NCBI GenBank assembly: GCA_050486305.1
Contig: JBJHDA010000001.1
Span: 435,071-499,070, forward strand
Direction of reading: 5' to 3'
Length of the DNA stretch: 64,000 nt
Source of the DNA: Candidatus Saccharimonadota bacterium
Lineage (GTDB): Bacteria > Patescibacteriota > Saccharimonadia > Saccharimonadales > SLHW01
The notes below the pieces were generated by a model. It ran no database searches. It saw nothing but the letters and a program-made list of their open reading frames with translations, and had not been told where the DNA came from. Below are positions 39,569 through 53,498 of this stretch, piece after piece. Position 1 is the stretch's first letter. Each line of letters starts with the position of its first letter. Position numbers and translations under genes: made by a program.

Positions 39569-39898
39569 TCAATTATCAGATAGGCGGTACGCGACTGATT
39601 GTCCCGCATCGCCTATCTGCTGCGCCTTGCCCTCGGCTTCTAGTTCATTCATATACCGCACTACGGTATTTCGCGATACGCCTAGGGCATCACGAATGTC
39701 TTCGTTCCCCATTTCACCGTTTTCTTGCAGCAGCTCCAGTACCCGCGCCTTGCGCGCTTCTTTCTAGCTGGTCCGCTCCAGCGCCACCGCGCAAACCCCC
39801 ATCACATCACTGCTAACCTGCTTCACCCTCTCCTTCGTCGGCCGATGCACCAGCAAAAACAGAACGGCTACAGCCAGAGCAATAACAAGATAAATCAT
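39569..39898 (-). pseudogene. Small membrane-anchored winged-helix HTH regulator, interrupted by an in-frame TAG (copy 1, full length)
   Basis: Minus-strand translation: MIYLVIALAVAVLFLLVHRPTKERVKQVSSDVMGVCAVALERTS-TAG-KEARKARVLELLQENGEMGNEDIRDALGVSRNTVVRYMNELEAEGKAAQ... The TAG at 39764-39766 aligns with CAG (Gln) in the paralog at 41768-42010. Confidence 0.65.
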
Positions 39899-40006
39899 GG
39901 TTTGATTATACCAATCAATAAAAAGTATTGACTTATCGTTCATATTGTAGTATTGTAGTAGAAGGTTTCAAAAGTACCCCCTCCAAGTAACAACGAGGAG
40001 GATACT

Positions 40007-40672
40007 ATGTCTGAAAGACATACCACCAAAGCGCACATCAACCAGTCTCCGCAATCAAGCGGAGATTTTTTTGTGCCCAAAACCAAAGACCCAACCGAAC
40101 AACAAAAAAGCATCGTCATAACTGGCGGCCCATCAACTGGCAAAACCACCGCGCTCAAACACCTAAAAACAAAGCGCTCGGATCTCGCCTACATAGGCGA
40201 GGCAGCAACTATGGTACTATCAAGCGGTTTCCCAACGCCCGATGAAGAAAGGCCCTGGACGCAACGCTGGCAAAATTCGTTGCAAATCGCGATAGCCGGC
40301 ATGCAGCTCGGGCTCGAATCAGCCACACATGAATATGCATCGTCACCAGTCATACAAGACAGAGGTCTGCTCGACGGCGCCTCTTACCTTGAGCGAGGGG
40401 TCGATGAATTCGAAGAACTCATCGGCATAGACAGGCAGACCATGTTAAAGCGCTATCATGCAGTCATCTACCTCGGCTGGCTTACCACGCGCACATACAG
40501 CAATACCAACAACCCGCAACGGTTTGAAGATGAAAGCCGTGCAAAACACCTATCGGAGAAGGTCAGGCAATGCTGGGGAGGACACCCAAACCTTATCGAA
40601 ATACACGACCAAGACAATCGGGCGGCAAAGATCGAGAAACTACTCCCTGCTCTGCTAGGTGAACGACAATGA
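40007..40672 (+). CDS. AAA_28/NadR-like P-loop NTPase
   Basis: Walker A GGPSTGKTT, then VIQDRG (Walker B-like). 221 aa. Overlaps the next gene by 4 nt. Confidence 0.6.
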   Translation: MSERHTTKAHINQSPQSSGDFFVPKTKDPTEQQKSIVITGGPSTGKTTALKHLKTKRSDLAYIGEAATMVLSSGFPTPDEERPWTQRWQNSLQIAIAGMQLGLESATHEYASSPVIQDRGLLDGASYLERGVDEFEELIGIDRQTMLKRYHAVIYLGWLTTRTYSNTNNPQRFEDESRAKHLSEKVRQCWGGHPNLIEIHDQDNRAAKIEKLLPALLGERQ

Positions 40673-41799
40673 AGCCAAACAGCAAGCCAAAAAAGCTGCT
40701 GTGGGGTATCTGCGGCGTCGGTATGGGGCATGCCCACAGGCAGCTCCCTCTAATCCAGTACTTTTCAGTAAATCATCAAGTTGTAATTATCACATGCGGT
40801 GATTCGTATCACATGTACAAACAAGAGCTTAAAGGCAACGCGAAAGTCACCGTTGTGTACGCCCAACCGCCATATTTACCTGATGGGGCTTCAGGAATCG
40901 GTTTTAAAGAAGCGATTAACTTAGACCGTAATCAAAACATTGATTTTTTCAAAACTAGTGCCGAGGCATTTACCACACTGAACAACGTCATCAGTAGGCC
41001 AGACCTGGTGATTGGCGACTATAAGCCATATTGCGCCCAATATGCTTATGCTCACAATGCTCCCGTTATAACGTTCGACCAGCAGAGCAAGTATTTGTCA
41101 GGTGACTTCCCAGACTCAATTAGAGGATGCAGCTACTCCGGCGAAGTTATGCGACTACAAATGTTCTACCCAAAAGTAGAAGAACGGATTGCAGCCTCGT
41201 TCTTTAAGTTCAAATCGAAGCCTAACGCACCTGAAGTGACCATAGTGCCGCCGATAATCCGACAGAGCATTCAAGCAATCAAGCCTCAGAGAAAAAACGA
41301 CGGATCGTTGCTGGTATATTTATCTGAATACCCTGATTTGCTCAATGCCGTACAGTTACTAGAAGCACTTTCAAGACAGCACGATACAACAATAAAACTA
41401 TTCGCGAAAGGAGCCAAAAAATATAAGCACAAGTGTAGAAATCTAAAGCTCAGAGAACCAAACAATCAGGCGTTTGTTAATGCACTGAAAACATGTAGTG
41501 GCATAATCTGTACTGCCGGACATAGTTTATTGTCTGAAGCAATGTACCTCGGCATACCGGTCTATGCGCTCCCGCGTAAACAATACGAGGCACTCATGTG
41601 CGCTCGCGTCATTGCTGGCAACGGATTTGGTACAACCTCAACAATGCTCAATCAATCAAGCATAGCTAAGTTTATAAACAACCTGCATACATATCGCCAA
41701 TCAATTCATCAAAACTCAAACAATATATTACTGCGAACTGACGGCACCAGTGAAGTTATAGATATAATTAACCGCCACCTAGGACCTTGGAATAGTTAA
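40669..41799 (+). CDS. Glycosyltransferase (GT-B, MurG/GT28-C-terminal-like, TIGR00661-like)
   Basis: N-terminal GICGVGMGHAHR motif and C-terminal ICTAGHSLLSEAMYLGIPVYALP, typical of GT1/GT28 nucleotide-sugar binding. Confidence 0.6.
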   Translation: MKPNSKPKKLLWGICGVGMGHAHRQLPLIQYFSVNHQVVIITCGDSYHMYKQELKGNAKVTVVYAQPPYLPDGASGIGFKEAINLDRNQNIDFFKTSAEAFTTLNNVISRPDLVIGDYKPYCAQYAYAHNAPVITFDQQSKYLSGDFPDSIRGCSYSGEVMRLQMFYPKVEERIAASFFKFKSKPNAPEVTIVPPIIRQSIQAIKPQRKNDGSLLVYLSEYPDLLNAVQLLEALSRQHDTTIKLFAKGAKKYKHKCRNLKLREPNNQAFVNALKTCSGIICTAGHSLLSEAMYLGIPVYALPRKQYEALMCARVIAGNGFGTTSTMLNQSSIAKFINNLHTYRQSIHQNSNNILLRTDGTSEVIDIINRHLGPWNS

Positions 41800-42010
41800 T
41801 GTCTCTAGGAGGTGTAAGGGTTATTTCATCGTTTTCTTGCAGGAGCTCCAGCACCCGCGCCTTGCGCGCTTCTTTCTGACTGGTGCGCTCTAGCGCCACC
41901 GCACAAACCCCAACCACATCACTGCTAACCTGCTTCACCCTCTCCTTCGTCGGCCGATGCACCAGCAAAAACAGAACGACTATCGCTAGCGCAATTACGA
42001 TATAGATCAT
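41768..42010 (-). pseudogene. Truncated copy 2 of the TM-HTH gene (5-prime 188 bp conserved; the HTH part is replaced by unrelated sequence)
   Basis: 41823-42010 aligns with 39711-39898 at high identity. The ORF MIYIVIALAIVVLFLLVHRPTKERVKQVSSDVVGVCAVALERTSQKEARKARVLELLQEND then diverges and runs antisense into the 3-prime end of the glycosyltransferase gene. Confidence 0.6.
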
Positions 42011-42065
42011 ACCTCGAGTTTAACATTTACAGAAACTCAGCGATGCCAATACCTGATGATTGATA
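42011..42065 (-). repeat. Upstream/promoter segment U (copy A) of the TM-HTH gene
   Basis: About 55 bp, nearly identical to 43475-43529. On the minus strand it contains TTGGCA, then a TAAATG/TAAACT-like box, then GAGG before the ATG. Confidence 0.6.
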
Positions 42066-42140
42066 TCAGATGTTTGATGCTATGCTGTCGATATGAGTCT
42101 AGATGTAAATCAGATCATCTCATTCAGAGATACGTGTAAT

Positions 42141-43367
42141 CTAAGATGACATGTCGATTTCTTTCAAGTCTAGCTGAACCCTGTATTCCTTTAACTGAAT
42201 AATTTCACCTACAGGCTTGATGGCAGAGAGGAGCGTTTTATCGGCTTCACCTACGATGATGAGACCTCTTACTTTTTTACCGTTGGCTAACTGGTCTTTC
42301 ACCCAGCTTATGTAGTTAAGTATTTGGCCAACTACTTTATAACCTGATGAATCACGCTTGAGCTCAATTACAACGAAGTCACCGTTTTTATCTGTTGCAA
42401 GAATGTCAATTATGCCTACATCTGTTGTGTATTGTTGACCTGTATTTCCAACATCATCAACATACATTGATAAATCTTCACCAAAATTAATATTTGCCCA
42501 ATTATTAACAACGTACTCTTCCAGGTGTTCTTCTAGTGGCATAAAGCCGGTATAATCATCACTTACAGCGGATTTTAGTCTTGTGCTGTCGGGTTCAATC
42601 TGAATTTCATTTGAATCTTCTGGGTTTACTTCTTCAGCTTTTGAGTGTGAATACTGCCTAGCGGTTACAAAGATAACGTCTTGAGTAACCCATCTGAATT
42701 CTGAGTCTTTAAACTCTAGGCCATCAGTGAGCGATTCACGAATTTCTTTAAACTCAGCTCTTTGTTTAACTAATTTCCTAAGACCTTCAATATATTCGTT
42801 ATAAAGTTTGTATTGTTCACCTGGCGGAGTCTTATGAGGGATCTTGAATTCTGGGTTTATGAATCGTGAAAAGACCTTCCATTCTGCTGGCTTTAATGGA
42901 TTGTATAAGTCTGGGTACTTGAATCCTAACAGCAAAGATATAAACCGTAGGTTTATATAAGTATTAGCTGGAGGATGTCCATTTTTTTTGCTTCGTTTCT
43001 TTTCAAGTTCATCGAAAGCAGTCTTAGTTCTATTGATTCGTTCAGCAACATCTACATTGTTGTCAAACAGATGTTTCAGTATTTCGCGTGTTTCATCTGG
43101 GTAGTCTTCTGCATAGTGCATCAACATCCGTTTAGGAAAAAACATTGATCCCGCAACGAGGTTATTATTAAGTATTGAGTCGTCGATATTGCCAGCTAAA
43201 TCTAGAGATTCAATGTCAAAGTGTGTTTGAAAGTGATTTACTGATTCAAACTTATAGCCCTCATGCTGCTCAACGTGTTTCTGTATGCCGTGTTTACGAA
43301 CGTGATTAAGAAATATTCTTAGCCAATCGTTGTAGCGACTTGCCTCATCTTCCTTCACTGTATTCAT
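42141..43367 (-). CDS. PD-(D/E)xK nuclease-domain protein (NucS/DUF91-like C-terminus) with an unknown ~300-aa N-terminal region
   Basis: C-terminus TDVGIIDILATDKNGDFVVIELKRDSSGYKVVGQILNYISWV matches the D...(D/E)xK...Q..Y pattern of NucS-like nucleases. I do not recognise the N-terminal part. Confidence 0.6.
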   Translation of the reverse strand: MNTVKEDEASRYNDWLRIFLNHVRKHGIQKHVEQHEGYKFESVNHFQTHFDIESLDLAGNIDDSILNNNLVAGSMFFPKRMLMHYAEDYPDETREILKHLFDNNVDVAERINRTKTAFDELEKKRSKKNGHPPANTYINLRFISLLLGFKYPDLYNPLKPAEWKVFSRFINPEFKIPHKTPPGEQYKLYNEYIEGLRKLVKQRAEFKEIRESLTDGLEFKDSEFRWVTQDVIFVTARQYSHSKAEEVNPEDSNEIQIEPDSTRLKSAVSDDYTGFMPLEEHLEEYVVNNWANINFGEDLSMYVDDVGNTGQQYTTDVGIIDILATDKNGDFVVIELKRDSSGYKVVGQILNYISWVKDQLANGKKVRGLIIVGEADKTLLSAIKPVGEIIQLKEYRVQLDLKEIDMSS

Positions 43368-43393
43368 ACTAATGTCCTCTCAAATTAATAGTT

Positions 43394-43474
43394 TTATCGT
43401 ACTATACTATTCTCCGGCCGATGCAAAAATAAGAATGCCTCCACCAAAGCCAAAGCTACTAATAGATAAATCAT
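43394..43474 (-). pseudogene. Copy 3 remnant of the TM-HTH gene 5-prime end (26 codons), now a leader ORF upstream of the nuclease gene
   Basis: MIYLLVALALVEAFLFLHRPENSIVR-stop. It shares the MIY...LFLLVHRP start and the CGGCCGATGCA DNA segment with copies 1 and 2. Confidence 0.5.
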
Positions 43475-43529
43475 ACCTCGAGTGTAACAATAACAGAAAC
43501 TCAGCGATGTCAATACCTGATGATTGATA
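43475..43529 (-). repeat. Upstream/promoter segment U (copy B)
   Basis: acctcgagtgtaacaataacagaaactcagcgatgtcaatacctgatgattgata compared with 42011-42065. A few mismatches. Confidence 0.6.
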
Positions 43530-43624
43530 GCTATTCCGGTAGAGCAGATTATCTAAGGTGCTGGCGATTCAATACTGTAATCTGAATTGCTTATAATACT
43601 AAGCAGAAAGGAGGACATACAAAA

Positions 43625-43717
43625 ATGAGTGATATTGATAACAGCTACGAACTACAAAAGATTCGTGAAGCACTGCAAAGTATTGCTAGCACACTGAGCT
43701 ATATCGCGCACAAATAG
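43625..43717 (+). CDS. Small ORF (30 aa) with a strong RBS
   Basis: AAAGGAGGA lies 8 nt upstream of the ATG, with a TATAAT-like box at ~43592. Peptide MSDIDNSYELQKIREALQSIASTLSYIAHK. Not in the ORF track (under 60 aa). Confidence 0.35.
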   Translation: MSDIDNSYELQKIREALQSIASTLSYIAHK

Positions 43718-43740
43718 GATATTTTATTATTACGGATTTA

Positions 43741-46700
43741 TCATTTTGCCACTTCGCGGCTCCAGTCGTCGCCGAAGAGGTTGGCCTGTTCGAGTACTAG
43801 GTCGGTGGCCATTTTTTGTTGATCTGGTGGATAGCCGTATTGGTTGAGTAGCTTCTTTACTTCAATGCGTAGGCGGGCTTGGGCACTTTCACGAACTTGC
43901 CAGTCTACACTTACGTTCTTGCGGATTTTTTGTACCAGCATTTGAGCAAGCTCACGTAACTGAGCGTCTTGCATGACTTCTTTGGCGCTTTCGTTCATGA
44001 TAAGCGCATCGTAAAAGGCTACTTCGTCTTCGTTGAGTCCCTCTACCCTACCTGCTTCGCTTTCTGTACGGATCTTTTTGGCTAACTCTATAAGCTCTTC
44101 GATGACTTGGGCAGCTTCGATAGTTTGGTTACGGTACCGGGTCAGAGTTTCTTCAAGCATTTCCGAGAATTGCCGTTCACGCACTGCGTTTTTAGAGAAT
44201 TTGGCCTTAACTTCATCATTTAGTAGTTTTTGCAGAGCTTCGACGGCAAGGTTTTTGCGCTGCATGCTCCGCACTTCTTCTAAGAATTCATCAGATAATA
44301 TCGATAGGTTTGGCTTATCAAGTCCAGCGGCCGAGAATATATCTACGACGCCTACGGGAGTAATGGCTTTATCTACAATCTGCCGTATGGCTAGACGGTA
44401 ATCATCATCTGTTGGTCCGCCTCTGCGATCAACTTTATCTAGTCGAGCCTTTACTGCCTGGAAAAATGCGACTTGTTCGCGAATAGCTACTGCTTCTTCG
44501 TGTGGCATGGCCAGTGCAAAGGCCTTGCTTAGCTCCAGTACATGTTGCTTCAGCCGCTTCATGCCGTTTTCTTGCGCGAGTATGAATTCTTCTGCGTCGA
44601 GAATAATCTGCAGCTGTTCATTAGTGTCTGCCGTGAAGTAACGCATATAGTCGAAGCCATAAAAGAGATTTTGCACAATCTCAAACTTTTGTTTCATCAG
44701 CGCCACTGCCTCAGTGATATCGAGCGCTGGCTGGCCTTCGCCGCCGCTTTCGGTGTAATCGTTGAGCGCTTCTCGCAGTGCAGCCGCTACTCCCAGGTAG
44801 TCCACGACTAGACCTCCTTCTTTGCCAGGATATACGCGGTTCACTCGGGCGATGGCCTGCATGAGCGTGTGGCCTTTGAGCGGTTTGTCTAGATACATAG
44901 TGTGGAGGTTCGGCACGTCAAAGCCAGTTAGCCACATATCACATACAATCACCAGCTTTAGGTCGTTGCTCGGGTCTTTCATTCGCTCTGCCAATCGGCC
45001 TAGCTTGTCTTTGCTATGGATGTGCTTTTGCAGGCTGCCTTCATCATCTGCCGAGCCAGATATTATTACCTTGATAAAGCCTTCGTCTATGTCGTCTTTG
45101 TGCCACTCGGGTCGTAGCTGAATGATCTTTTCGTATAGATCAGCAGCAATACGGCGACTCATGGTTACGATCATTCCTTTGCCATCTATGGCTTCGAGTC
45201 TACCCTCGAAGTGCTTAATAATATCTTCTGCTATCAATTGCAATCGGTCACTATCGCCGACGATGGCTTCTTTTTGTGCAAACTCAGCTTTGAGTTTTTG
45301 CTGGCGGGTTGCTTCTTCGCCTTCTAGCAGATCGCCGACTTCTTTGTCGAGCCATTGCTTGGTTTCTTCGTCCAGGCCGAGGTCGATTAGTCGGCTTTCG
45401 TAATAAATAGGCACAGTTGCCTTGTCTTCTACGGCTTGGTGTACGTCATAAATGTCTACGTAGTTACCAAACACTGCTGGGGTAGAGCGGTCATCTTGTT
45501 CGATCGGTGTACCAGTAAAGCCGATGTAGCTGGCCTCTGGCAAGGCGTCACGCATATACTTGGCATAGCCATACACTAGCTGTGCGTCGCTTTGGCGGAT
45601 GCGAGCTTTTAGGCCGTACTGGCTGCGGTGTGCCTCGTCTGCGATCACGATGATGTTGGTACGTTCACTCAGGGTTGGTAGATGATCTTCATCCTCGCCT
45701 GGCGAGAACTTCTGGATAGTCGTAAAGATCACGCCGCCGGCATCGCGGTCTAGTAGTTCTCGTAGCTGCTTGCGAGTAGTTGCCTGTTTCGGCTTCTGGC
45801 GGAGTATGTCTTGGCAGCTAGCGAATGTGTTAAACAATTGACCGTCAAGGTCATTACGGTCGGTCACGATCACGAGCGTCGGATTCTTTAGCTCGCTAGA
45901 GAGGATGAGCTTGCCAGCATAGAACACCATACTAAGTGACTTGCCTGAGCCTTGGGTGTGCCAAACCACACCAGCACGGTGGTCGCTGTCTGGCTGAGCC
46001 GACTTTTTGGTGGAAGCAACGGCTTTGTTGACCGCCCAGTATTGGTGGTATGCGGCGACTTTTTTGATGTACTTTTCTTCTTTGAGTCCTTCGCGCTCAA
46101 AGACGATGAAGTGTCGGACTATATCAAGTAGCCGCGACTTATCAAATACGCCGCGGAGCATTACGTCTAGTTGCGGTACGTTGCTCTTTAGTTTTTCGCC
46201 CTCTATCGTCTTCCACGGCATAAATCGTTCCAGCTGGGCGGATATTGTGCCGAGCCGGGCTTCGTGCCCGTCGCTGATAACGCATAGTTCATTAAAGCGG
46301 AATAGTGAGCCAATCTGGTCTTTATATGTTTGTATTTGGTTGAACGCGCGCTTGACGTTTGCCTTTTCGCTGGCGGCATTCTTTAGCTCTATCACGACCA
46401 GTGGCAGACCGTTTACAAATAGCACGATGTCTGGGCGGCGATTGTGTTCACCCTCCACTACGGTAAATTGATTGACTGCCACAAAGTCGTTGTATTGCGC
46501 CTGATCAAAGTCAAATAGCTTAACTACTTGAGTGCGGATCGTTCCGTCGTTATCGCGATACTCTACATGCACTCCGTCTATTAGTAGCTTATGAAAGGCG
46601 TGATTATCTAGCACGAGGTCTGGGCTGTTACTGCGCAATGTTTTTTTGATAGCTTCTTGTCGGTCGGTTTCGGTTAGACTCGGGTTTATCCGCGCAACGG

Positions 46701-46845
46701 CATCATCTAGCCTGCCAACCAATGCCACCTCGCTGTATTCTCGCTCTCCAGAGCCATCTGGCCCGATGTCTGGCCCAAACAGCACTTCCCAGCCAAGCTC
46801 ACGTAATGTATCTAGTGCTGATTGTTCAATCTTGTCTTCTGTCAT
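43741..46845 (-). CDS. hsdR: Type I restriction enzyme, R subunit
   Basis: 1034 aa. N-terminal PD-(D/E)xK region (DIVLFVNGLPLVVIELK), helicase motifs HTQGSGKS and VIADEAHRSQ, and a typical C-terminal helical domain. Confidence 0.92.
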   Translation of the reverse strand: MTEDKIEQSALDTLRELGWEVLFGPDIGPDGSGEREYSEVALVGRLDDAVARINPSLTETDRQEAIKKTLRSNSPDLVLDNHAFHKLLIDGVHVEYRDNDGTIRTQVVKLFDFDQAQYNDFVAVNQFTVVEGEHNRRPDIVLFVNGLPLVVIELKNAASEKANVKRAFNQIQTYKDQIGSLFRFNELCVISDGHEARLGTISAQLERFMPWKTIEGEKLKSNVPQLDVMLRGVFDKSRLLDIVRHFIVFEREGLKEEKYIKKVAAYHQYWAVNKAVASTKKSAQPDSDHRAGVVWHTQGSGKSLSMVFYAGKLILSSELKNPTLVIVTDRNDLDGQLFNTFASCQDILRQKPKQATTRKQLRELLDRDAGGVIFTTIQKFSPGEDEDHLPTLSERTNIIVIADEAHRSQYGLKARIRQSDAQLVYGYAKYMRDALPEASYIGFTGTPIEQDDRSTPAVFGNYVDIYDVHQAVEDKATVPIYYESRLIDLGLDEETKQWLDKEVGDLLEGEEATRQQKLKAEFAQKEAIVGDSDRLQLIAEDIIKHFEGRLEAIDGKGMIVTMSRRIAADLYEKIIQLRPEWHKDDIDEGFIKVIISGSADDEGSLQKHIHSKDKLGRLAERMKDPSNDLKLVIVCDMWLTGFDVPNLHTMYLDKPLKGHTLMQAIARVNRVYPGKEGGLVVDYLGVAAALREALNDYTESGGEGQPALDITEAVALMKQKFEIVQNLFYGFDYMRYFTADTNEQLQIILDAEEFILAQENGMKRLKQHVLELSKAFALAMPHEEAVAIREQVAFFQAVKARLDKVDRRGGPTDDDYRLAIRQIVDKAITPVGVVDIFSAAGLDKPNLSILSDEFLEEVRSMQRKNLAVEALQKLLNDEVKAKFSKNAVRERQFSEMLEETLTRYRNQTIEAAQVIEELIELAKKIRTESEAGRVEGLNEDEVAFYDALIMNESAKEVMQDAQLRELAQMLVQKIRKNVSVDWQVRESAQARLRIEVKKLLNQYGYPPDQQKMATDLVLEQANLFGDDWSREVAK

Positions 46846-47885
46846 TCTATCTCTCTCAGTCCATAGTATACATCGAAGCGCTCCTTCTCCTTATCATCTA
46901 GTTGGCCTATGAAAAAACTAAACAACTCTAAGGCAAGAGATTTTACATCCTCGTCTAATCCTATACCGTAGACCTGATTGTTTGTCATCATTGCATCCTT
47001 GATCGCAGCTAATTCTTCTTGTCGGTAAAAATCTAGGCTATCGTGAATTCTGGTAACTACATTGTGAGTTGAACTAAAACTCCCTGAAGCCTGCAGGCTG
47101 CTTGGATCTTCAATGAGCAAAGAATCCGATGTTTTTATAATCTCTTTACTTGTAGCGTCTTGAAGCACAAGTGTTGAATATTCTTCATAGTCAAACTGGC
47201 TAACAACATCAGTGTTTCTGTTGACCCAATTATCCCTCAGTATAGCCTCAGGTTGCTCTAACTCATTTCTAATAGCACCGACTGTGTAGTCATCAAAAAA
47301 CACCCTGCTTAGTTCTTTCGCTATCTCATCCGGGCTTAAGCAAATTATTTCTTGCCTGTTTTTGTAATACTCTTTAAGTCTACCGTCCATGCAAGCTAAA
47401 TAGTATACATCGTATGTTTTTTGCTTCAAAAAATCATCGATTGTGCATGCTATAAGAGCATCTTTTATGCCTTTGTCGGAGTTATTTTTACCATTACTGT
47501 TTCGCATATTAAACGGTGGATTGCCAGGAATTACCCATTTGCGAATTTTCTTGTACGCCTCCACAGGATCTTTGATGTCAATCACCTGGTACGGTATATC
47601 CTCCATGATTTGTAGTTTACGAACATGTTCTTGCTCGTTTACAGTCTCCAGTGCAGTCGTGTCAAATCCGAGCATTGGTAGCAAAGAATTTCGCTTCAAT
47701 ATATTTAAATTTTCTTGAATACCCTCGGTCTTCTGCTGCACTAATTCATCGATAACAATTTGAGGCATGTATATCGTTGCCCGCTGGGATATTTTGATTA
47801 GTGTATCTCTTCGGCCGAAAAAAGCTTGCTGCGTACGATCTGCGTAACATGAGTTGGTATCAAAGATGACTGCAATTTTCGACAT
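46842..47885 (-). CDS. PIN-like (DUF4935-like) domain protein embedded between hsdS and hsdR
   Basis: N-terminal IAVIFDTNS, QIVIDELVQQ and DKGIKDALIACTI give the ordered acidic residues of PIN-like nucleases. The C-terminal ~170 aa is unknown. It overlaps hsdR by 4 nt. Confidence 0.5.
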   Translation of the reverse strand: MSKIAVIFDTNSCYADRTQQAFFGRRDTLIKISQRATIYMPQIVIDELVQQKTEGIQENLNILKRNSLLPMLGFDTTALETVNEQEHVRKLQIMEDIPYQVIDIKDPVEAYKKIRKWVIPGNPPFNMRNSNGKNNSDKGIKDALIACTIDDFLKQKTYDVYYLACMDGRLKEYYKNRQEIICLSPDEIAKELSRVFFDDYTVGAIRNELEQPEAILRDNWVNRNTDVVSQFDYEEYSTLVLQDATSKEIIKTSDSLLIEDPSSLQASGSFSSTHNVVTRIHDSLDFYRQEELAAIKDAMMTNNQVYGIGLDEDVKSLALELFSFFIGQLDDKEKERFDVYYGLREIE

Positions 47886-47891
47886 GTTTTT

Positions 47892-49055
47892 TCATACCTT
47901 TAATTCCCCGGATATTAAGCGTGGTAAAAGTGAATCACGTAAGCTTGAGAGAATAGCTATATTATTTATATTCAAAATAATCTGATCTACGATATCATCG
48001 AGTTGGCCAACTTCTTGTTTTTGCTCTTTTGGTATAAAAATCTTCATATGATCAATAGACTTTCCAGCGTGTTTAATTGTAGTACCCGTTGAATACACGT
48101 CTATCACCCTTTGAGTAGTCGGTGATTTCATATAAAAATATATGTACCCGCTAGAAATGCTTTCGTGCTTTGAGGTAATTTTTTGAATCCCACTAGAGTA
48201 AGCTCCTTCATATCCAACCCTGACCATACCGGGTGCACCATCAAATGAAACTAGTACATTGTGTTTATTTACAAAGCAGCCGTTTGCTATATCTTTTTTT
48301 ATGTAAACTTCGGATCCTTTATTTGTTAAATCACCTACTCGGTAAAAACTAATTGTGTCTTCGTGGGGCTCCGCTTCATATTTTTTTGAGCCAGGCTCAA
48401 TCCCTCGTTTAAAATTTAATACATCTTTTGCGGGCTTACCTTCAAGCTTCTCAGTCTCAGGATTGTCGATGAAGTAGTGCTTGAAGAGGGCTTGGCCCAT
48501 TTGCTCCAGCGTTTCATTCATTTGCCGATTCAATTCAATCTTTTCATTAATCTTGCCTAGAATTTCTACAATCTTTTGCTGCTCTTGTAGTTTGGGGAGA
48601 ATAATCTTAATAGTCTTTACGGCCTTGGTCGGGGTAGCTATCGATGGTACACCAACCTGTGCAGCATGCTGCATTAACTCATGCTGACCAATTGCGGATT
48701 TCATATAATAAAGTAGGTATCTCGGATTTACCTTGTTCTTATTTAGAGACATCCGTAACTGTGATTGTGAAGCTAAATAGTAGGGATACTTTCCATGCGG
48801 GACAATACTCACTTGCCCAAGAGTTCCACGATGGGTAACAACAATATCATCAGGATATGCAAGGCTACGTTTTAACGATCGCGCCTTCTCTTCGCTAACA
48901 AATGAGAAATCACCACCTACTTCATATCCGTAAAGATTCCCGCCTTTAATAACAGGAACACCCGCCTCAATGAAGTTATCTGCTTTGAGATTTGATCCAA
49001 AAGGACCCATCGCAAGATCGACAAGCAAATCTCCAAGCAAAACAGTCTGAGTCAT
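47892..49055 (-). CDS. hsdS: Type I restriction enzyme, S (specificity) subunit
   Basis: Two target-recognition domains separated by conserved helices (LPEQQKIVEILGKINEKIELNRQMNETLEQMGQALFKHYF and a C-terminal LRDSLLPRLISGEL). Confidence 0.88.
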   Translation of the reverse strand: MTQTVLLGDLLVDLAMGPFGSNLKADNFIEAGVPVIKGGNLYGYEVGGDFSFVSEEKARSLKRSLAYPDDIVVTHRGTLGQVSIVPHGKYPYYLASQSQLRMSLNKNKVNPRYLLYYMKSAIGQHELMQHAAQVGVPSIATPTKAVKTIKIILPKLQEQQKIVEILGKINEKIELNRQMNETLEQMGQALFKHYFIDNPETEKLEGKPAKDVLNFKRGIEPGSKKYEAEPHEDTISFYRVGDLTNKGSEVYIKKDIANGCFVNKHNVLVSFDGAPGMVRVGYEGAYSSGIQKITSKHESISSGYIYFYMKSPTTQRVIDVYSTGTTIKHAGKSIDHMKIFIPKEQKQEVGQLDDIVDQIILNINNIAILSSLRDSLLPRLISGELKV

Positions 49056-49444
49056 CTTGACACCCTCCCTGCTTTCTTGGCGAGCTTTGTAAATTTCTTC
49101 TGTTCGTCCATAAGTACTTCTGGATTTTTTACATAATGACTTGCTTGACGTTCGTGTTGCTCAAAGTCGAGTGCAGTTTCTATCCCACACTGACGGCAGA
49201 AGTGGCTTAGTGTACCTGCAGGCTTATAGTACAAAGAACGAACTTCGAATTCCTTACCCTCCAGTACAATAAGTGCAAAATGTGGGCACGCGTTTTTGAG
49301 TTTGATTAGGTTGTTCGAATCACGTCTTTCGAGAAATTTATTTATGTCAAAAGATATCCTGATTGCAATTATTGATACGACCGTCAAAATGAACAGCCCG
49401 ACGAACTGCCAAAAAGTCAGGCCCGTATTAAAGATCCCGTTCAA
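49052..49444 (-). CDS. Small membrane protein with a Cys/His cluster (embedded in the R-M operon)
   Basis: N-terminal TM helix (LTFWQFVGLFILTVVSIIAI), then ACPH...HFCRQC (Zn-ribbon-like). Overlaps hsdS by 4 nt. Confidence 0.5.
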   Translation of the reverse strand: MNGIFNTGLTFWQFVGLFILTVVSIIAIRISFDINKFLERRDSNNLIKLKNACPHFALIVLEGKEFEVRSLYYKPAGTLSHFCRQCGIETALDFEQHERQASHYVKNPEVLMDEQKKFTKLAKKAGRVSR

Positions 49445-49472
49445 AGCTTACTCCCGCGCAAAACAGTCTGCG

Positions 49473-49976
49473 TCATTTTTTCTTCTCCCATTTCTTCGTA
49501 GGAAATTGACTAAAATACGGTCCACGCAAATCAGATAATTTATCAAGTTCAGCATGGATTCTAATTTGCTGCTCGGCATGATTTTCTGCTTGTTCGCCGA
49601 CATCAAAAAATTCCCCACCGTACAAAATACCTTTACCTCCAATGTATGTACCGTGCGCAAACATGTTACGAATTTTTAACCAGTTCTTAAACAATGACTT
49701 ATTCAGCTTGTTTTTGTCACCGAGCAAGCGTTTATAGATTTTGGCCAAGATGTTTATTTTGGTATCTAGTGATATGCCTCGGCCGTTCATCAAATCGTAC
49801 ATAAATGCTAAATAAATAGGCTGGTAGTCCGCGTTTGGGCAGCGCGTATAAAACTCTGCCACATAAGCGTTTATCATGTGTTCTATGGATGTAGCTTGCG
49901 TTATAACCCTTCCGATTAATGCCTGATCCATAATAAGCTTGGAGGTTAAATCATCTGACAAGTCAGCCTTGGTCAT
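49473..49976 (-). CDS. HEPN-motif protein (Abi-like, putative RNase) embedded in the R-M operon
   Basis: Rx4H motif in KIRNMFAHGTY within an all-helical-looking ~167-aa protein. I prefer the ATG at 49976, with GAGG 6 nt upstream, over the ORF-track start at 50015. Confidence 0.5.
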   Translation of the reverse strand: MTKADLSDDLTSKLIMDQALIGRVITQATSIEHMINAYVAEFYTRCPNADYQPIYLAFMYDLMNGRGISLDTKINILAKIYKRLLGDKNKLNKSLFKNWLKIRNMFAHGTYIGGKGILYGGEFFDVGEQAENHAEQQIRIHAELDKLSDLRGPYFSQFPTKKWEKKK

Positions 49977-50511
49977 TTTTCGCCTCGATACTGTTACGGT
50001 GAGCATTTTTTGCACTTAACAGAAGACTGTACTCTTTCGGCTTCACTTGAACGTCGTAATCGTTGATAAGGGGCCTCATGAGGCGAATTGCTCCGCTTCT
50101 CAACCCTCGATTAGATAATCCAATATCCCGCCTCATCTCTCTGAATACATTGGTCATTAAAACCATGGTGTAAAATCCATTGCCGGGCTGATCGCTCCTA
50201 TATGTATTTTGCAGCATATCGGAATATGCGTTAATTACTCTCGGCGCAGAGTAAAGCACTGCGGTTTTGTGAAAGTCTTTCATTCTCTTAACGATATCTT
50301 TTTGTTGCTCTGGTGTAGCTCCTGTTTTTTGATCTTGTACGTCGGCTAGAAACTGCAAGATAAAGTTTACATACTCCTGGTACATCTCTCGTTTAATCTC
50401 AGCATTCCTAGAGCTGAACTGCGCCTTCTTGTCTAGCGAATACTTAATCAAGTAACCAACTATACCACTTGATATAATGCCGACAAGAGTGAGCCAATTT
50501 TCTGTTGTCAT
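49963..50511 (-). CDS. Single-pass membrane protein of unknown function (embedded in the R-M operon)
   Basis: N-terminal TM helix (WLTLVGIISSGIVGYLI). The remainder looks helical with no known motif. ATGA overlap with the upstream gene. Confidence 0.5.
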   Translation of the reverse strand: MTTENWLTLVGIISSGIVGYLIKYSLDKKAQFSSRNAEIKREMYQEYVNFILQFLADVQDQKTGATPEQQKDIVKRMKDFHKTAVLYSAPRVINAYSDMLQNTYRSDQPGNGFYTMVLMTNVFREMRRDIGLSNRGLRSGAIRLMRPLINDYDVQVKPKEYSLLLSAKNAHRNSIEAKNDQG

Positions 50512-51188
50512 TCGTTGCCTCTTTTCCTAAACCTGACACTAAGAAAGCCAAAACTCAATTCTGGAGTAATCTCAATTTTTCGTAACAGTCGAAATTTTCT
50601 TTTTGAGTCTTTCACGCTGCTACGAGTTACGTTCAGCAAAGTTTCTGAATTATAACCTTGGGTTGTTATTGCTCCTGATTCGACTGCTCCAAAATCATTG
50701 CCGGCATATTTTATCTTGTGCCTCTTTAGCTCGGATTTTTCGATACTTCCAAATACGAGCATATGGCCATAACCAAGATCATCAAACGCCGCCTTAATGC
50801 CAGCGAGGAATATACCGCCTATATCTTGGCGGTAGATATCCGGAATATTTTTTTCTGTAGAAGGTAGCGTTGAAACATAGCGCATGTGTTTGGCTATTGC
50901 GGCACACAGTTCAATAAACCTTTTGGGGCTTGGCTCGATTTCTAATCGCTCGAATACTAGAGCTGTCTTGCTGTGATTATCGAGCTCTTTAGTGTTTTTA
51001 GTCGGGCATTTTTCACCCATTAATCGCCAAACGTTTTGATACGATGCGCTGATAACATCTGCGAAACGTCCGTAATCGAGCAATGAATATTCATTAAAGA
51101 GCGAGTTCTTGATTCGCTCGAATGCATCAGGCGTCATCGGATTATTGACAGGTTGGCTCGGTAAGTCTGCAATTTTTTTATAAATCAT
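50508..51188 (-). CDS. Hypothetical protein (first gene after hsdM in the R-M operon)
   Basis: 226-aa ORF overlapping the hsdM stop by 11 nt. No recognisable motif. Confidence 0.5.
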
Positions 51189-52668
51189 AACCGATCTTCT
51201 TCAGGCTGTCTTTTATCTTCTGCTCTAGCTCATGGCTTTGTTCGAATTGCTGCTTTAGGTCGGTTGTGAGACGCTGCATTTTCTCGTTGAATGCTTCGTC
51301 GTCTTCTTCTACTTCGGCCGCGCCAACGTAGCGCCCTGGGGTGAGTACATGGTCGTGTTCGCGGATCTCGTCGAGTGTGGCAATTTTGTAGAAGCCAGGG
51401 ATGTCTTCGTACTTATCATTTTGGTCACGGAAGTTGTGATACACCTGGGCGATTTCGGCTATTTCATCTTCTGTAAGCTGGCGGTTGCGGCGATTGATCA
51501 TCTCGCCTTTTTCGCGGGCATCTATAAATAGTGTTTTGCCAGAGCGGTTGGTGCGATCTCTAGCGACAAACCATAGACAAGCAGGAATACCTGTGTTGAA
51601 GAAGAGTTGTGGCGGTAGAGCTACCATGCAGTCAACGAGGTCAGCCTCAACAAGGTTCTTGCGAATCTCACCCTCCCCTGATGTGTTGGAGCTCATAGAG
51701 CCATTAGCCAAGACAAACCCTGCTATACCCTTAGGGCTTAAGTGATGGATGAAGTGCTGTACCCAGGCAAAGTTGGCGTTGCCCTTTGGCGGGGTTCCGT
51801 ATTTCCACCGAGAATCGTTTTGCAGTAATTCGCCACTCCAATCACTCACGTTAAATGGCGGATTGGCGATGACGTAGTCGGCCTTTAGATCTTTGAGCTT
51901 ATCGTTGTGCAGGGTATCGCCATACTGAATGTCGGCATCTATGCCGCGGATGGCCATGTTCATCTTGGCGAGCTTCCAGGTGGTCTGGTTCGACTCCTGG
52001 CCATAGACAGCTATGTCGCCCAGACGGCCTTCGTGCTCCTCAATAAATTTTTCGCTCTGTACAAACATACCACCGCTGCCACAACACGGGTCATAGATTC
52101 GCCCTTTGTAGGGCTGGAGCATTTCGACTAGTAGCTTGACGATGCTTTTTGGTGTATAAAATTGACCGCCACGCTTGCCTTCTGCATCGGCAAACATGCC
52201 AATAAAGTATTCGTAGATACGGCCAAGCATGTCTAAGTTTTTGTGGCCGGTGCCATTTAGACTGACGCTACTGAACGTGTCTATAAGCTCACCGAGGCGA
52301 CGCTTATCCAACGCTTCGCGGGCATAATTTTTCGGCAGTACACCTTTGAGCGAGGGGTTTTCGCGCTCGATAGCATCCATGGCATCGTCGATTAGTACTC
52401 CGATATTGGGTTGTTTGGCATTGTCTTTGAGGAATGACCAGCGGGCCTCTTTTGGCACCCAAAACACGTTTTCGGCAGCGTACCAGTCGCGATCTTCAGG
52501 ATCGTAGTCTTCATCTACGGCTTGTTTATAGCGTACTTCAAACGAGTCTGAGATATATTTAAGAAAGATGAGGCCCAGCACCACGTGCTTGTACTCGGCT
52601 GCATCCATATTGTTGCGCAGCTTGTCTGCTGATTGCCAAAGTTGCTTTTCTATTTGCTGTATATCCAA
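51178..52668 (-). CDS. hsdM: Type I restriction enzyme, M (N6-adenine DNA methyltransferase) subunit
   Basis: HsdM N-terminal domain ([32 protein letters not shown]), SAM motif [10 protein letters not shown], and catalytic NPPFN. I prefer the TTG start at 52668, with AGGAG 7 nt upstream. Confidence 0.9.
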
Positions 52669-52781
52669 CGTAATACTCCTGGTTATAAGTCGCTCAGTCA
52701 ATCTGACGTTGCAGTGTAAGAATTTTAACATCTTATAAGGTGTTTTTCCACGCTCAGAGGCTAGCCTTAGTTTGTAGTAGA

Positions 52782-53498
52782 ATGAACCTAATGGATAAGT
52801 TATCAAAATCTGCTCATCAATGGGTCAGAGAAAATCGTAAAAAACTACTACAAGAATTTTGCTCCGACACTATTTATAAATCTCAGGGACAGCCTTCAAC
52901 CATATTCATGGCTGGTACTCCTGGAGCGGGAAAAACAGAATTCTCAAAAAAATTGATCGAAGAGTTCCCGGTAAAGATGGTACGTATTGACGCTGATGAA
53001 ATCAGAGAGCTAATGCGCGACATCGGCTATAACGGTGCAAACGCAAAAGTATTTCAGACTGCTGCAACGAAAGGCGTTAACCAACTTTACGATCAAGCGT
53101 TAAAGAAAGGATATAGCGCAGTCGTTGATGGGACATTTTCATATGGGAGCTGGAGAGAGAACATCGATAGATCTTTAGGTAGAGGCAGACTAGTTGAGAT
53201 TTATTACTTATATCAAGAACCGGAAATTGCTTGGGATTTTGCAAAAAGGCGCGAAGCAAATGAAGGTCGAGCAGTCCCAGCAGAAACATTTATCGATGCA
53301 TATATTAAATCAATAAGAAATGTAAATGAAGCGAAGCGCATATTCGGGAACAAAGTCAAAGTAAATTACGCCGAGAATGACTATCGAAAAAATGTCAAAA
53401 AAATCGAGCTTGATATCGATAATGTTGAAAGATATCTACCTAAAATATATAATGAAGACGAGTTAAAAGGTTTGTTGCATGAAAGAAGCAGTTCGTAA
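52782..53498 (+). CDS. Zeta-toxin-family P-loop kinase
   Basis: Walker [15 protein letters not shown] followed by RIDADEIRE, typical of zeta toxin/AAA_33-like kinases. Start uncertain (52782 or 52791). Confidence 0.65.

Follow-up and report, generated by a model that had tools for sequence, protein, structure and literature searches.

We analysed a 64,000-nucleotide stretch of contig JBJHDA010000001.1 from a Candidatus Saccharimonadota bacterium (hereafter, the window) and focused on one gene in its defence island. A type I restriction-modification (R-M) operon ends just ahead of this gene, which is read from the same strand and encodes a 408-amino-acid protein that is predicted to join an all-alpha N-terminal domain to a NucS-like nuclease domain. 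The positions of the gene, its domains and the surrounding features are collected in Table 1.

The open reading frame (ORF) had been called in an earlier note made from the letters of this DNA, and our analysis confirms it. The ORF starts with ATG and encodes 408 amino acids; its product has 262 homologues in the databases, and the best 120 of these are full-length, with 385–429 amino acids and 45–87% identity. Because of these homologues, a chance ORF can be dismissed, and 42141..43367 is a genuine gene. A protein identical to its product is already present in a public collection (P0001). Moreover, a Logan contig from an independent assembly (L030; SRR31311414, 1834 bp) is the same, base for base, as positions ~41949–43782 of the window. 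One edge of this contig falls within the 3′ end of hsdR, the other within repeat copy 2 (described below).

Table 1. Features of the locus, with positions in the window
Feature	Position	Strand	Basis or remark
Coding sequence of the putative sensor-nuclease, 408 amino acids	42141..43367	minus	ATG start, stop codon included
Shine-Dalgarno-like GAGAGGA	43375..43381	minus	7 nt 5′ of ATG; read from sequence
N-terminal all-alpha domain, residues 1–240, 11 helices	42648..43367	minus	AlphaFold
Acidic linker, residues 241–275, isoelectric point (pI) 4.2	42543..42647	minus	Low-confidence AlphaFold, alignment variability
NucS_C-type PD-(D/E)xK (RecB-like) nuclease domain, residues 276–408	42144..42542	minus	Pfam, PDB, PADLOC
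E279 codon	42531–42533	minus
D321 codon	42405–42407	minus
E335 codon	42363–42365	minus
K337 codon	42357–42359	minus
Q348 codon	42324–42326	minus
Y352 codon	42312–42314	minus
Repeat copy 1: full-length small gene (transmembrane and winged helix), in-frame TAG at codon 45	39569..39953	minus	Repeated segment 39711–39953
Repeat copy 2: leader and ~64 codons, directly 3′ of the nuclease gene	41823..42065	minus	ORF 41768..42010
Repeat copy 3: leader and first ~20 codons (“promoter segment U” of the earlier note)	43410..43529	minus	Repeat search, alignment
26-codon remnant ORF of the small gene, MIYLLVALALVEAFLFLHRPENSIVR	43394..43474	minus	Diverges from the other copies after ~codon 20
AAA_28 P-loop protein (221 amino acids) and Glyco_trans_1_3 GT1 glycosyltransferase (376 amino acids) cassette	40007–41799	plus	Between repeat copies 1 and 2
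Type I R-M operon, upstream of the nuclease gene	43741..52806	minus	Pfam
hsdM	51178–52806	minus	Pfam
hsdS	47892–49055	minus	Pfam
hsdR	43741–46845	minus	Pfam
PIN_12 gene, 347 amino acids, between hsdS and hsdR	46842–47885	minus	Pfam
Weak HEPN RiboL-PSP-like ORF, 180 amino acids, inside the R-M operon	49473–50015	minus	Pfam

Overall structure of the protein

AlphaFold modelled the whole protein with a predicted local distance difference test score (pLDDT) of 90 and a predicted template modelling score (pTM) of 0.83, and the N-terminal domain alone with a pLDDT of 93.5 and a pTM of 0.89. The structure prediction that the earlier note had recommended gives a confident all-alpha model (pLDDT 90–93.5). 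The 300-residue N-terminal domain described in that note, which remains without a Pfam assignment, is actually a folded domain of ~240 residues followed by an acidic, apparently disordered linker of ~35 residues. Residues 260–272 of the linker have pLDDT values below 50, and both its length and its sequence vary across the homologue alignment. The calculated pI is 6.8 for the N-terminal domain and 4.5 for the nuclease domain. Judging from the alignment, the full-length two-domain architecture is kept throughout the 120 homologues, over the whole range of 45–87% identity.

The nuclease domain

The C-terminal part was proposed to contain a PD-(D/E)xK core of the NucS type on the basis of the peptide GIIDILATDKNGDFVVIELKRDSSGYKVVGQILNYISW, which corresponds to residues 318–355, and both sequence and fold bear this out. 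Pfam NucS_C matches residues 311–371 (E = 1.6e-9; 38.2 bits, cutoff 24), and phmmer aligns residues 316–373 to the solved structures of NucS (2vld) and EndoMS (5gke). In a Foldseek search of the full AlphaFold model against the PDB, the 2vld/5gke chains are the only significant matches (E = 8e-6 to 5e-4). The nuclease domain also shows a weaker likeness to Card1 (6xl1, E = 3e-3) and Can2 (8q42, E = 1.7e-2). E279, E335-L-K337 and Q348-x3-Y352 never vary among the best 120 of the 262 homologues, and the conservation of D321 is at least 90%. The earlier note had named missing catalytic residues as an outcome that would refute it; this refutation fails, because none of the RecB/NucS-type motifs has been lost.

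A clear match to a housekeeping nuclease, the other such outcome, was not found either. The NCBIfam equivalogs of NucS score far below their cutoffs (NF003270, 49.5 versus 216 bits; NF002876, 22.9 versus 252 bits) and cover residues ~309–374 only. The NucS N-terminal domain has no Pfam match at E ≤ 1; the N-terminus is all-alpha instead. Two further families that the earlier note had brought into play dropped out. The Shedu-like (DUF4263) candidate was ruled out, as SduA_C (PF14082) has no match at E ≤ 1 and the PADLOC matches of the protein are limited to PDC-S02, PDC-S11, PDC-S18 and PDC-S28, with no Shedu model among them. DUF1016 was ruled out as well, as YhcG_C reaches 19.1 bits and the cutoff is 32.5 bits; a precomputed PF06250 match overlaps NucS_C in some homologues.

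Where else does this nuclease occur? PDLC04824, the PADLOC model of the predicted candidate system PDC-S02, matches residues 265–402 at 4e-32, corresponding to positions 170–306 of its 308, and likewise matches the nuclease module part in the homologues P0016 and P0112. In the control protein WP_058952590.1, a true PDC-S02 of 311 amino acids from Acinetobacter plasmids, the same model spans positions 3–307 (1.2e-159). The two proteins are alike in the C-terminal nuclease module of ~140 amino acids (40% identity over residues 256–402) and in their single-gene organisation in or beside a type I R-M operon. In contrast, the N-terminal ~170 amino acids of PDC-S02 are unrelated to the 240-residue helical domain, whose hidden Markov model (HMM) has no PDC-S02 match. 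The nuclease module is also fused to DUF7669 in a Pseudomonas plasmid protein. Because the same module appears in the PDC-S02 and DUF7669 fusions, we regard it as a reusable effector module with interchangeable N-termini.

On the Acinetobacter plasmids, the canonical PDC-S02 protein of 311 amino acids lies inside an hsdM-hsdS-X-abi-hsdR operon (L033; NZ_CP087717.1, 264733–277149). The link between the nuclease module and type I R-M thus extends beyond the family of the 408-residue protein.

The N-terminal helical domain

What is the helical domain in front of the nuclease? No Pfam or NCBIfam model matches it, its profile finds chance matches only among the PDB sequences, and Foldseek returns nothing significant, with best E values of 1.2 in the PDB and 0.57 in BFVD. 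In this sense the N-terminus is unrecognised, as the earlier note had it; nevertheless, it proved to be a widespread module that is common to McrB-, GmrSD- and EVE-containing type IV restriction proteins. Using a profile built from 18 N-terminal domains, we searched 1.84 billion representative proteins and found 1,459 clusters (at 50% identity) with E ≤ 1e-3, 786 of them with E ≤ 1e-10, in proteins of 250–1,250 amino acids.

A census of the partner domains in 62 of the longer matches revealed AAA_5 in 42 proteins, EVE in 8, MrcB_N in 5, and GmrSD_N and Mrr_N in 2 each. NCBIfam NF008457 identifies the AAA_5 partners as bona fide McrB GTPases (E down to 1.3e-98). Among the closest relatives of the domain, we observed four architectures: the helical domain with the McrB GTPase, with EVE and McrB, with the McrB-N reader and McrB, or with GmrSD_N and HEPN. 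In these McrB- and GmrSD-like proteins, the homologous domain (profile E = 6e-99 to 4e-21 among the 150 best matches listed) has the same N-terminal position as in the 408-residue protein, and it shares the conserved E-x-YK, NL, R, K-P and D residues. Unlike McrB, the 408-residue protein has a directly fused PD-(D/E)xK effector and no GTPase motor or McrC partner; consistently, the protein contains no AAA_5 domain, and no McrC-like neighbour exists in the window.

The protein P0137 (565 amino acids) consists of the helical domain and the McrB GTPase, with no further domain recognised by Pfam. McrB carries its specificity domain at the N-terminus (PMC11090510), and in P0137 the helical domain therefore occupies the place of the McrB specificity domains. 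Across 132 diverse N-terminal domains, the residues E36, Y38, K39, F46, N69, L70, P78, R110, P152, K159, D221 and D230 are conserved. Conservation of such polar and aromatic residues would be expected of a binding pocket or active site more than of a part with a structural role only. Both halves of the 408-residue protein are reused modularly in other proteins, in a sensor-plus-effector pattern.

The domain is also matched by the N-terminal part of a 952-amino-acid hypothetical protein (27% identity, E = 7e-11) encoded by the gut Caudoviricetes phage NatCom_35866 (PV036449.1, 3935–6793; L045). The gene for this phage protein adjoins a DNA methyltransferase gene.

Genomic context and distribution

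The HsdM of the type I system is the sole methyltransferase in the island, which is bordered by ordinary genes (RadC, Ddl-like and Pup-ligase-like). The gap between hsdR and the nuclease gene measures 373 nt and holds a separate leader segment. The guanine-cytosine (GC) content over the nuclease cassette (42001–44000) is 0.39, as compared to ~0.48 in the surroundings, and that of the R-M operon is 0.40–0.45. The low GC content of the cassette is consistent with horizontal acquisition.

Is the position next to a type I operon peculiar to the window? We surveyed 20 distinct loci with full-length homologues, using the fetched flanks. In five of them (the window, L004, L009, L019 and L024), the nuclease gene directly adjoins type I R-M genes of the same strand, whose order differs among the loci, and in L004 the start codon of the nuclease homologue directly follows the hsdR stop codon. 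A single-gene cassette placed behind a type I R-M operon in this way is found again in unrelated lineages. The other 15 loci have no complete adjacent type I R-M set in the fetched flanks; two of these, L020 and L025, show only an HsdM-like match at the locus edge. Elsewhere, homologues have DNA methyltransferases, Mrr-type nucleases, a type III-like enzyme or SocA-Panacea toxin-antitoxin pairs as neighbours.

The family is sporadic. Among 185,579 species-representative genomes, we found 14 full-length copies: 11 in Patescibacteria, 2 in unclassified “bacterium” metagenome-assembled genomes (MAGs) and 1 in an Acidobacteria MAG. Three more Saccharibacteria loci in the same search match the nuclease domain only, and one homologue (P0112, MEM1990306.1) is named at NCBI as coming from a Nitrososphaerota archaeon. 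In a Saccharimonadales genome (L005/L006, 8001–10510), P0016 and a DUF2130 gene have been inserted into the conserved str-operon region, with fusA on one side and tuf on the other. Several ORFs of the window are 55–69% identical to Saccharibacteria MAG loci, in keeping with a probable host among the Saccharibacteria, and every window protein that we looked up is a singleton at 90% identity.

The embedded genes of the R-M operon (46842–51188) additionally include three ORFs with no Pfam match, of 130, 182 and 226 amino acids. Between the hsdR stop codon and the repeated leader described below, the opposite strand carries a 30-codon ORF, MSDIDNSYELQKIREALQSIASTLSYIAHK (43625–43717, plus), which has a strong Shine-Dalgarno sequence (GGAGG), and a promoter-like site is located nearby (43524–43552).

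Repeats around the cassette

The nuclease gene is flanked by partial copies of a small gene, whose product combines a transmembrane helix with a winged helix (HTH_24, E = 2.3e-8, on the reconstructed copy 1 with the stop codon read as Q). Copies 2 and 3 are 76% identical and have the leader in common, and copies 1 and 2 are 87% identical over the coding part, with the leader not shared by copy 1. The 3′ end of copy 2 is interrupted by the convergent AAA_28 and glycosyltransferase cassette, and the 26-codon remnant at copy 3 stops 24 nt ahead of the nuclease start codon. As a result, the nuclease cassette (~42066–43409) is bracketed by direct repeats of ~120 nt with 76% identity, and the AAA_28 and glycosyltransferase cassette by repeats of ~200 nt with 87% identity. 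These nested repeats suggest that cassettes recombined one after another at a single hotspot gene next to hsdR, and not that a target site was freshly duplicated. In the AAA_28 and glycosyltransferase cassette, the stop codon of one gene overlaps with the start codon of the other, and this cassette could be another defence or modification module.

The remnant ORF and the repeated segment upstream of the gene, both reported in the earlier note, are real and, like the gene itself, lie on the minus strand. The further proposal that the gene is driven by a duplicated promoter and leader holds in its first part: the duplication exists and represents a truncated 5′ fragment of the small gene. The repeated leader contains a perfect −35 element, TTGACA (43513–43508), and a poor −10 element; however, it was not called in the consensus promoter scan, in which the region has 7 promoter-like sites as compared to 9.1 expected from shuffled sequence.

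Proposed function

How might the 408-residue protein act? We consider it likely that the protein is a defence nuclease in the broad sense. More specifically, we propose that it is a single-polypeptide sensor-nuclease whose best-fitting class is that of the type IV-like (modification-dependent) restriction endonucleases, a narrower assignment that we put at about even odds. Its predicted domains place it as a modular enzyme of the modification-dependent restriction type or a relative of PDC-S02. The idea of a stand-alone sensor-nuclease fusion in a defence island, already voiced in the earlier note, is supported. The suggestion of a type IV restriction-like protein or a new fusion is strengthened by the sharing of the N-terminal domain with type IV proteins, and is shorn of its Shedu affinity.

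In the proposed mechanism, the helical domain would recognise the target, which may be a modified or otherwise non-self feature of DNA or a phage cue. This recognition would then license the nuclease domain, which is probably dimeric by analogy with NucS, to introduce double-strand breaks. The sensor-nuclease would thereby complement the adjacent type I system, which is directed at unmodified DNA. A comparable division of labour is known from TgvAB, a GmrSD-like type IV system that is embedded in the type I R-M cluster of the V. cholerae island VPI-2 and complements type I restriction (PMC11411939). In both cases, a modification-dependent restriction function, here a predicted one, resides within or beside a type I R-M operon, whereas TgvAB comprises two genes of the unrelated GmrSD family and the present system only one gene.

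Several observations weigh against a type IV-like enzyme. The type IV function of the family is so far a prediction. The deduced protein is acidic, and its charge gives no hint of DNA binding. The N-terminal domain has no detectable similarity to known modified-base readers or DNA-binding folds in the Foldseek searches of the PDB and BFVD described above. In several McrB proteins, moreover, it precedes the established readers EVE and McrB-N, so that, instead of being the reader, it may have an accessory or regulatory role. Finally, several homologues adjoin DNA methyltransferases, which would also fit a methylation-sensitive enzyme.

We also tentatively suggest that type IV-like restriction systems may have, in the helical domain, a new and widely distributed module for specificity or sensing. 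It would respond to a phage cue or to a type of DNA modification beyond those read by EVE, SRA, McrB-N, wH and the inactivated EndoIII domain (iEndoIII). The NucS-like fusion would then be the minimal one-protein version of these systems, enriched in the tiny genomes of Patescibacteria.

Alternative explanations

The protein could instead be an accessory or guard nuclease of the adjacent type I HsdRMS complex, perhaps activated once phage anti-restriction proteins inactivate that complex or recruited to stalled HsdR, and not an independent enzyme; we regard this as unlikely. An analogy is offered by PrrC, which is held by EcoprrI. The recurrent position of the gene directly 3′ of the R-M genes on the same strand, seen in 5 of the 20 loci with varied gene orders and at its closest in L004, is what such a guard would predict, and the canonical PDC-S02, with the same nuclease module, inside a type I operon points in the same direction. 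However, the 15 loci with no complete adjacent type I R-M set argue for independence, and so does the 373-nt gap with its own leader segment that separates the gene from hsdR in the window. The other partners of the N-terminal domain, McrB and GmrSD, are autonomous type IV machines, and type I clusters are known as landing sites for independent defence genes (PMC11411939).

A second alternative, which we judge slightly less likely still, is membership in the END nucleases, with the N-terminal domain as a highly diverged, inactivated EndoIII/Ogg (HhH-GPD) sensor that restricts hypermodified phages (for example, those with modified guanine). The END nucleases combine an inactivated EndoIII/Ogg-like sensor with a PLD nuclease, a NucS-like PD-DExK nuclease or McrB (Yee et al., bioRxiv 2025; PMC12191111), and END-Mag, which consists of a NucS-like nuclease and iEndoIII, restricts phages with modified G (PMC12191111). 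The likeness to END-Mag is considerable: each is a one-protein combination of a sensor and a NucS-like PD-DExK nuclease, the sensor also occurs on McrB, and modification dependence has been proposed or shown. As two of the iEndoIII partners, the NucS-like PD-DExK nuclease and the McrB GTPase, are both seen here, the partner sets are strikingly similar, and we therefore tested the N-terminal domain for iEndoIII identity.

Among the listed PDB matches of the domain, the highest template modelling score (0.32/0.36) belongs to 3fhg, the S. solfataricus Ogg, which is also the top reported HHpred match of END-Mag. However, this match is insignificant (E = 3.6, root-mean-square deviation 11 Å), and 3fhg is the sole HhH-GPD chain among the 50 matches listed; over 60 different HhH-GPD sequences are present in the PDB. 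Ten diverse N-terminal domains have no Pfam match to HhH-GPD (PF00730) or OGG-like (PF21790) at E ≤ 10, and an HMM search of the domain against E. coli Nth detected no homology. An hhalign comparison of the 132-sequence profile of the domain with an EndoIII-family profile, made from 11 sequences of E. coli and plasmid records, gave a probability of 0.3% and a P value of 0.21. In addition, no PLD-nuclease fusions occur among the closest relatives of the domain. Since Foldseek, Pfam and hhalign all lack significant HhH-GPD homology, END membership is not supported; the comparison was made via the EndoIII/Ogg families, and in it the N-terminal domain differs from the END-Mag sensor in having no detectable EndoIII/Ogg homology. 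We also considered whether the Nitrososphaerota homologue P0112 is END-Mag itself (MDV2503288.1), and rejected this because the accessions do not match.

It is very improbable that the protein is a ligand-activated effector like Card1/Can2 or Cap4, in which binding of a small-molecule signal to the N-terminal domain would turn on the nuclease and cause abortive infection. This idea draws on the resemblance of the nuclease domain to Card1 and Can2; however, no cyclase, CARF, SAVED or other signal-generating gene adjoins the gene in the window or in the annotated loci, and the McrB and GmrSD proteins to which the N-terminal domain is fused are not known as signal-activated. A housekeeping NucS/EndoMS nuclease for the repair of mismatches or branched DNA is scarcely credible: the NucS_C match, the database label “endonuclease NucS domain-containing protein” on the homologues, and the C-terminal catalytic fold with the D, ExK and QxxxY motifs shared with the archaeal and actinobacterial mismatch endonuclease (2vld, 5gke) all recall that family, whereas the protein lacks the NucS N-terminal DNA-binding/dimerisation domain, falls far below the equivalog cutoff, is found in full length just 14 times among the species genomes, and is encoded on a low-GC cassette in a defence island, so that family, context and distribution all differ.

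Implications

A type IV-like sensor-nuclease at this locus would extend, by a compact gene, the small set of defence genes known from Saccharibacteria and other bacteria of the candidate phyla radiation, and would supply a function for the nuclease module of the PADLOC candidate PDC-S02. If the protein is instead a diverged END nuclease, it would extend the family described in 2025 and could serve as a reagent for detecting hypermodified phage DNA.

The most valuable element is the N-terminal module, which is uncharacterised yet widespread. If the helical domain is the target-recognition module, it would represent an unstudied sensor of more than 1,000 clusters of McrB-, GmrSD- and NucS-type restriction proteins, and the 408-residue protein would be the smallest and most tractable member for finding what this domain recognises.

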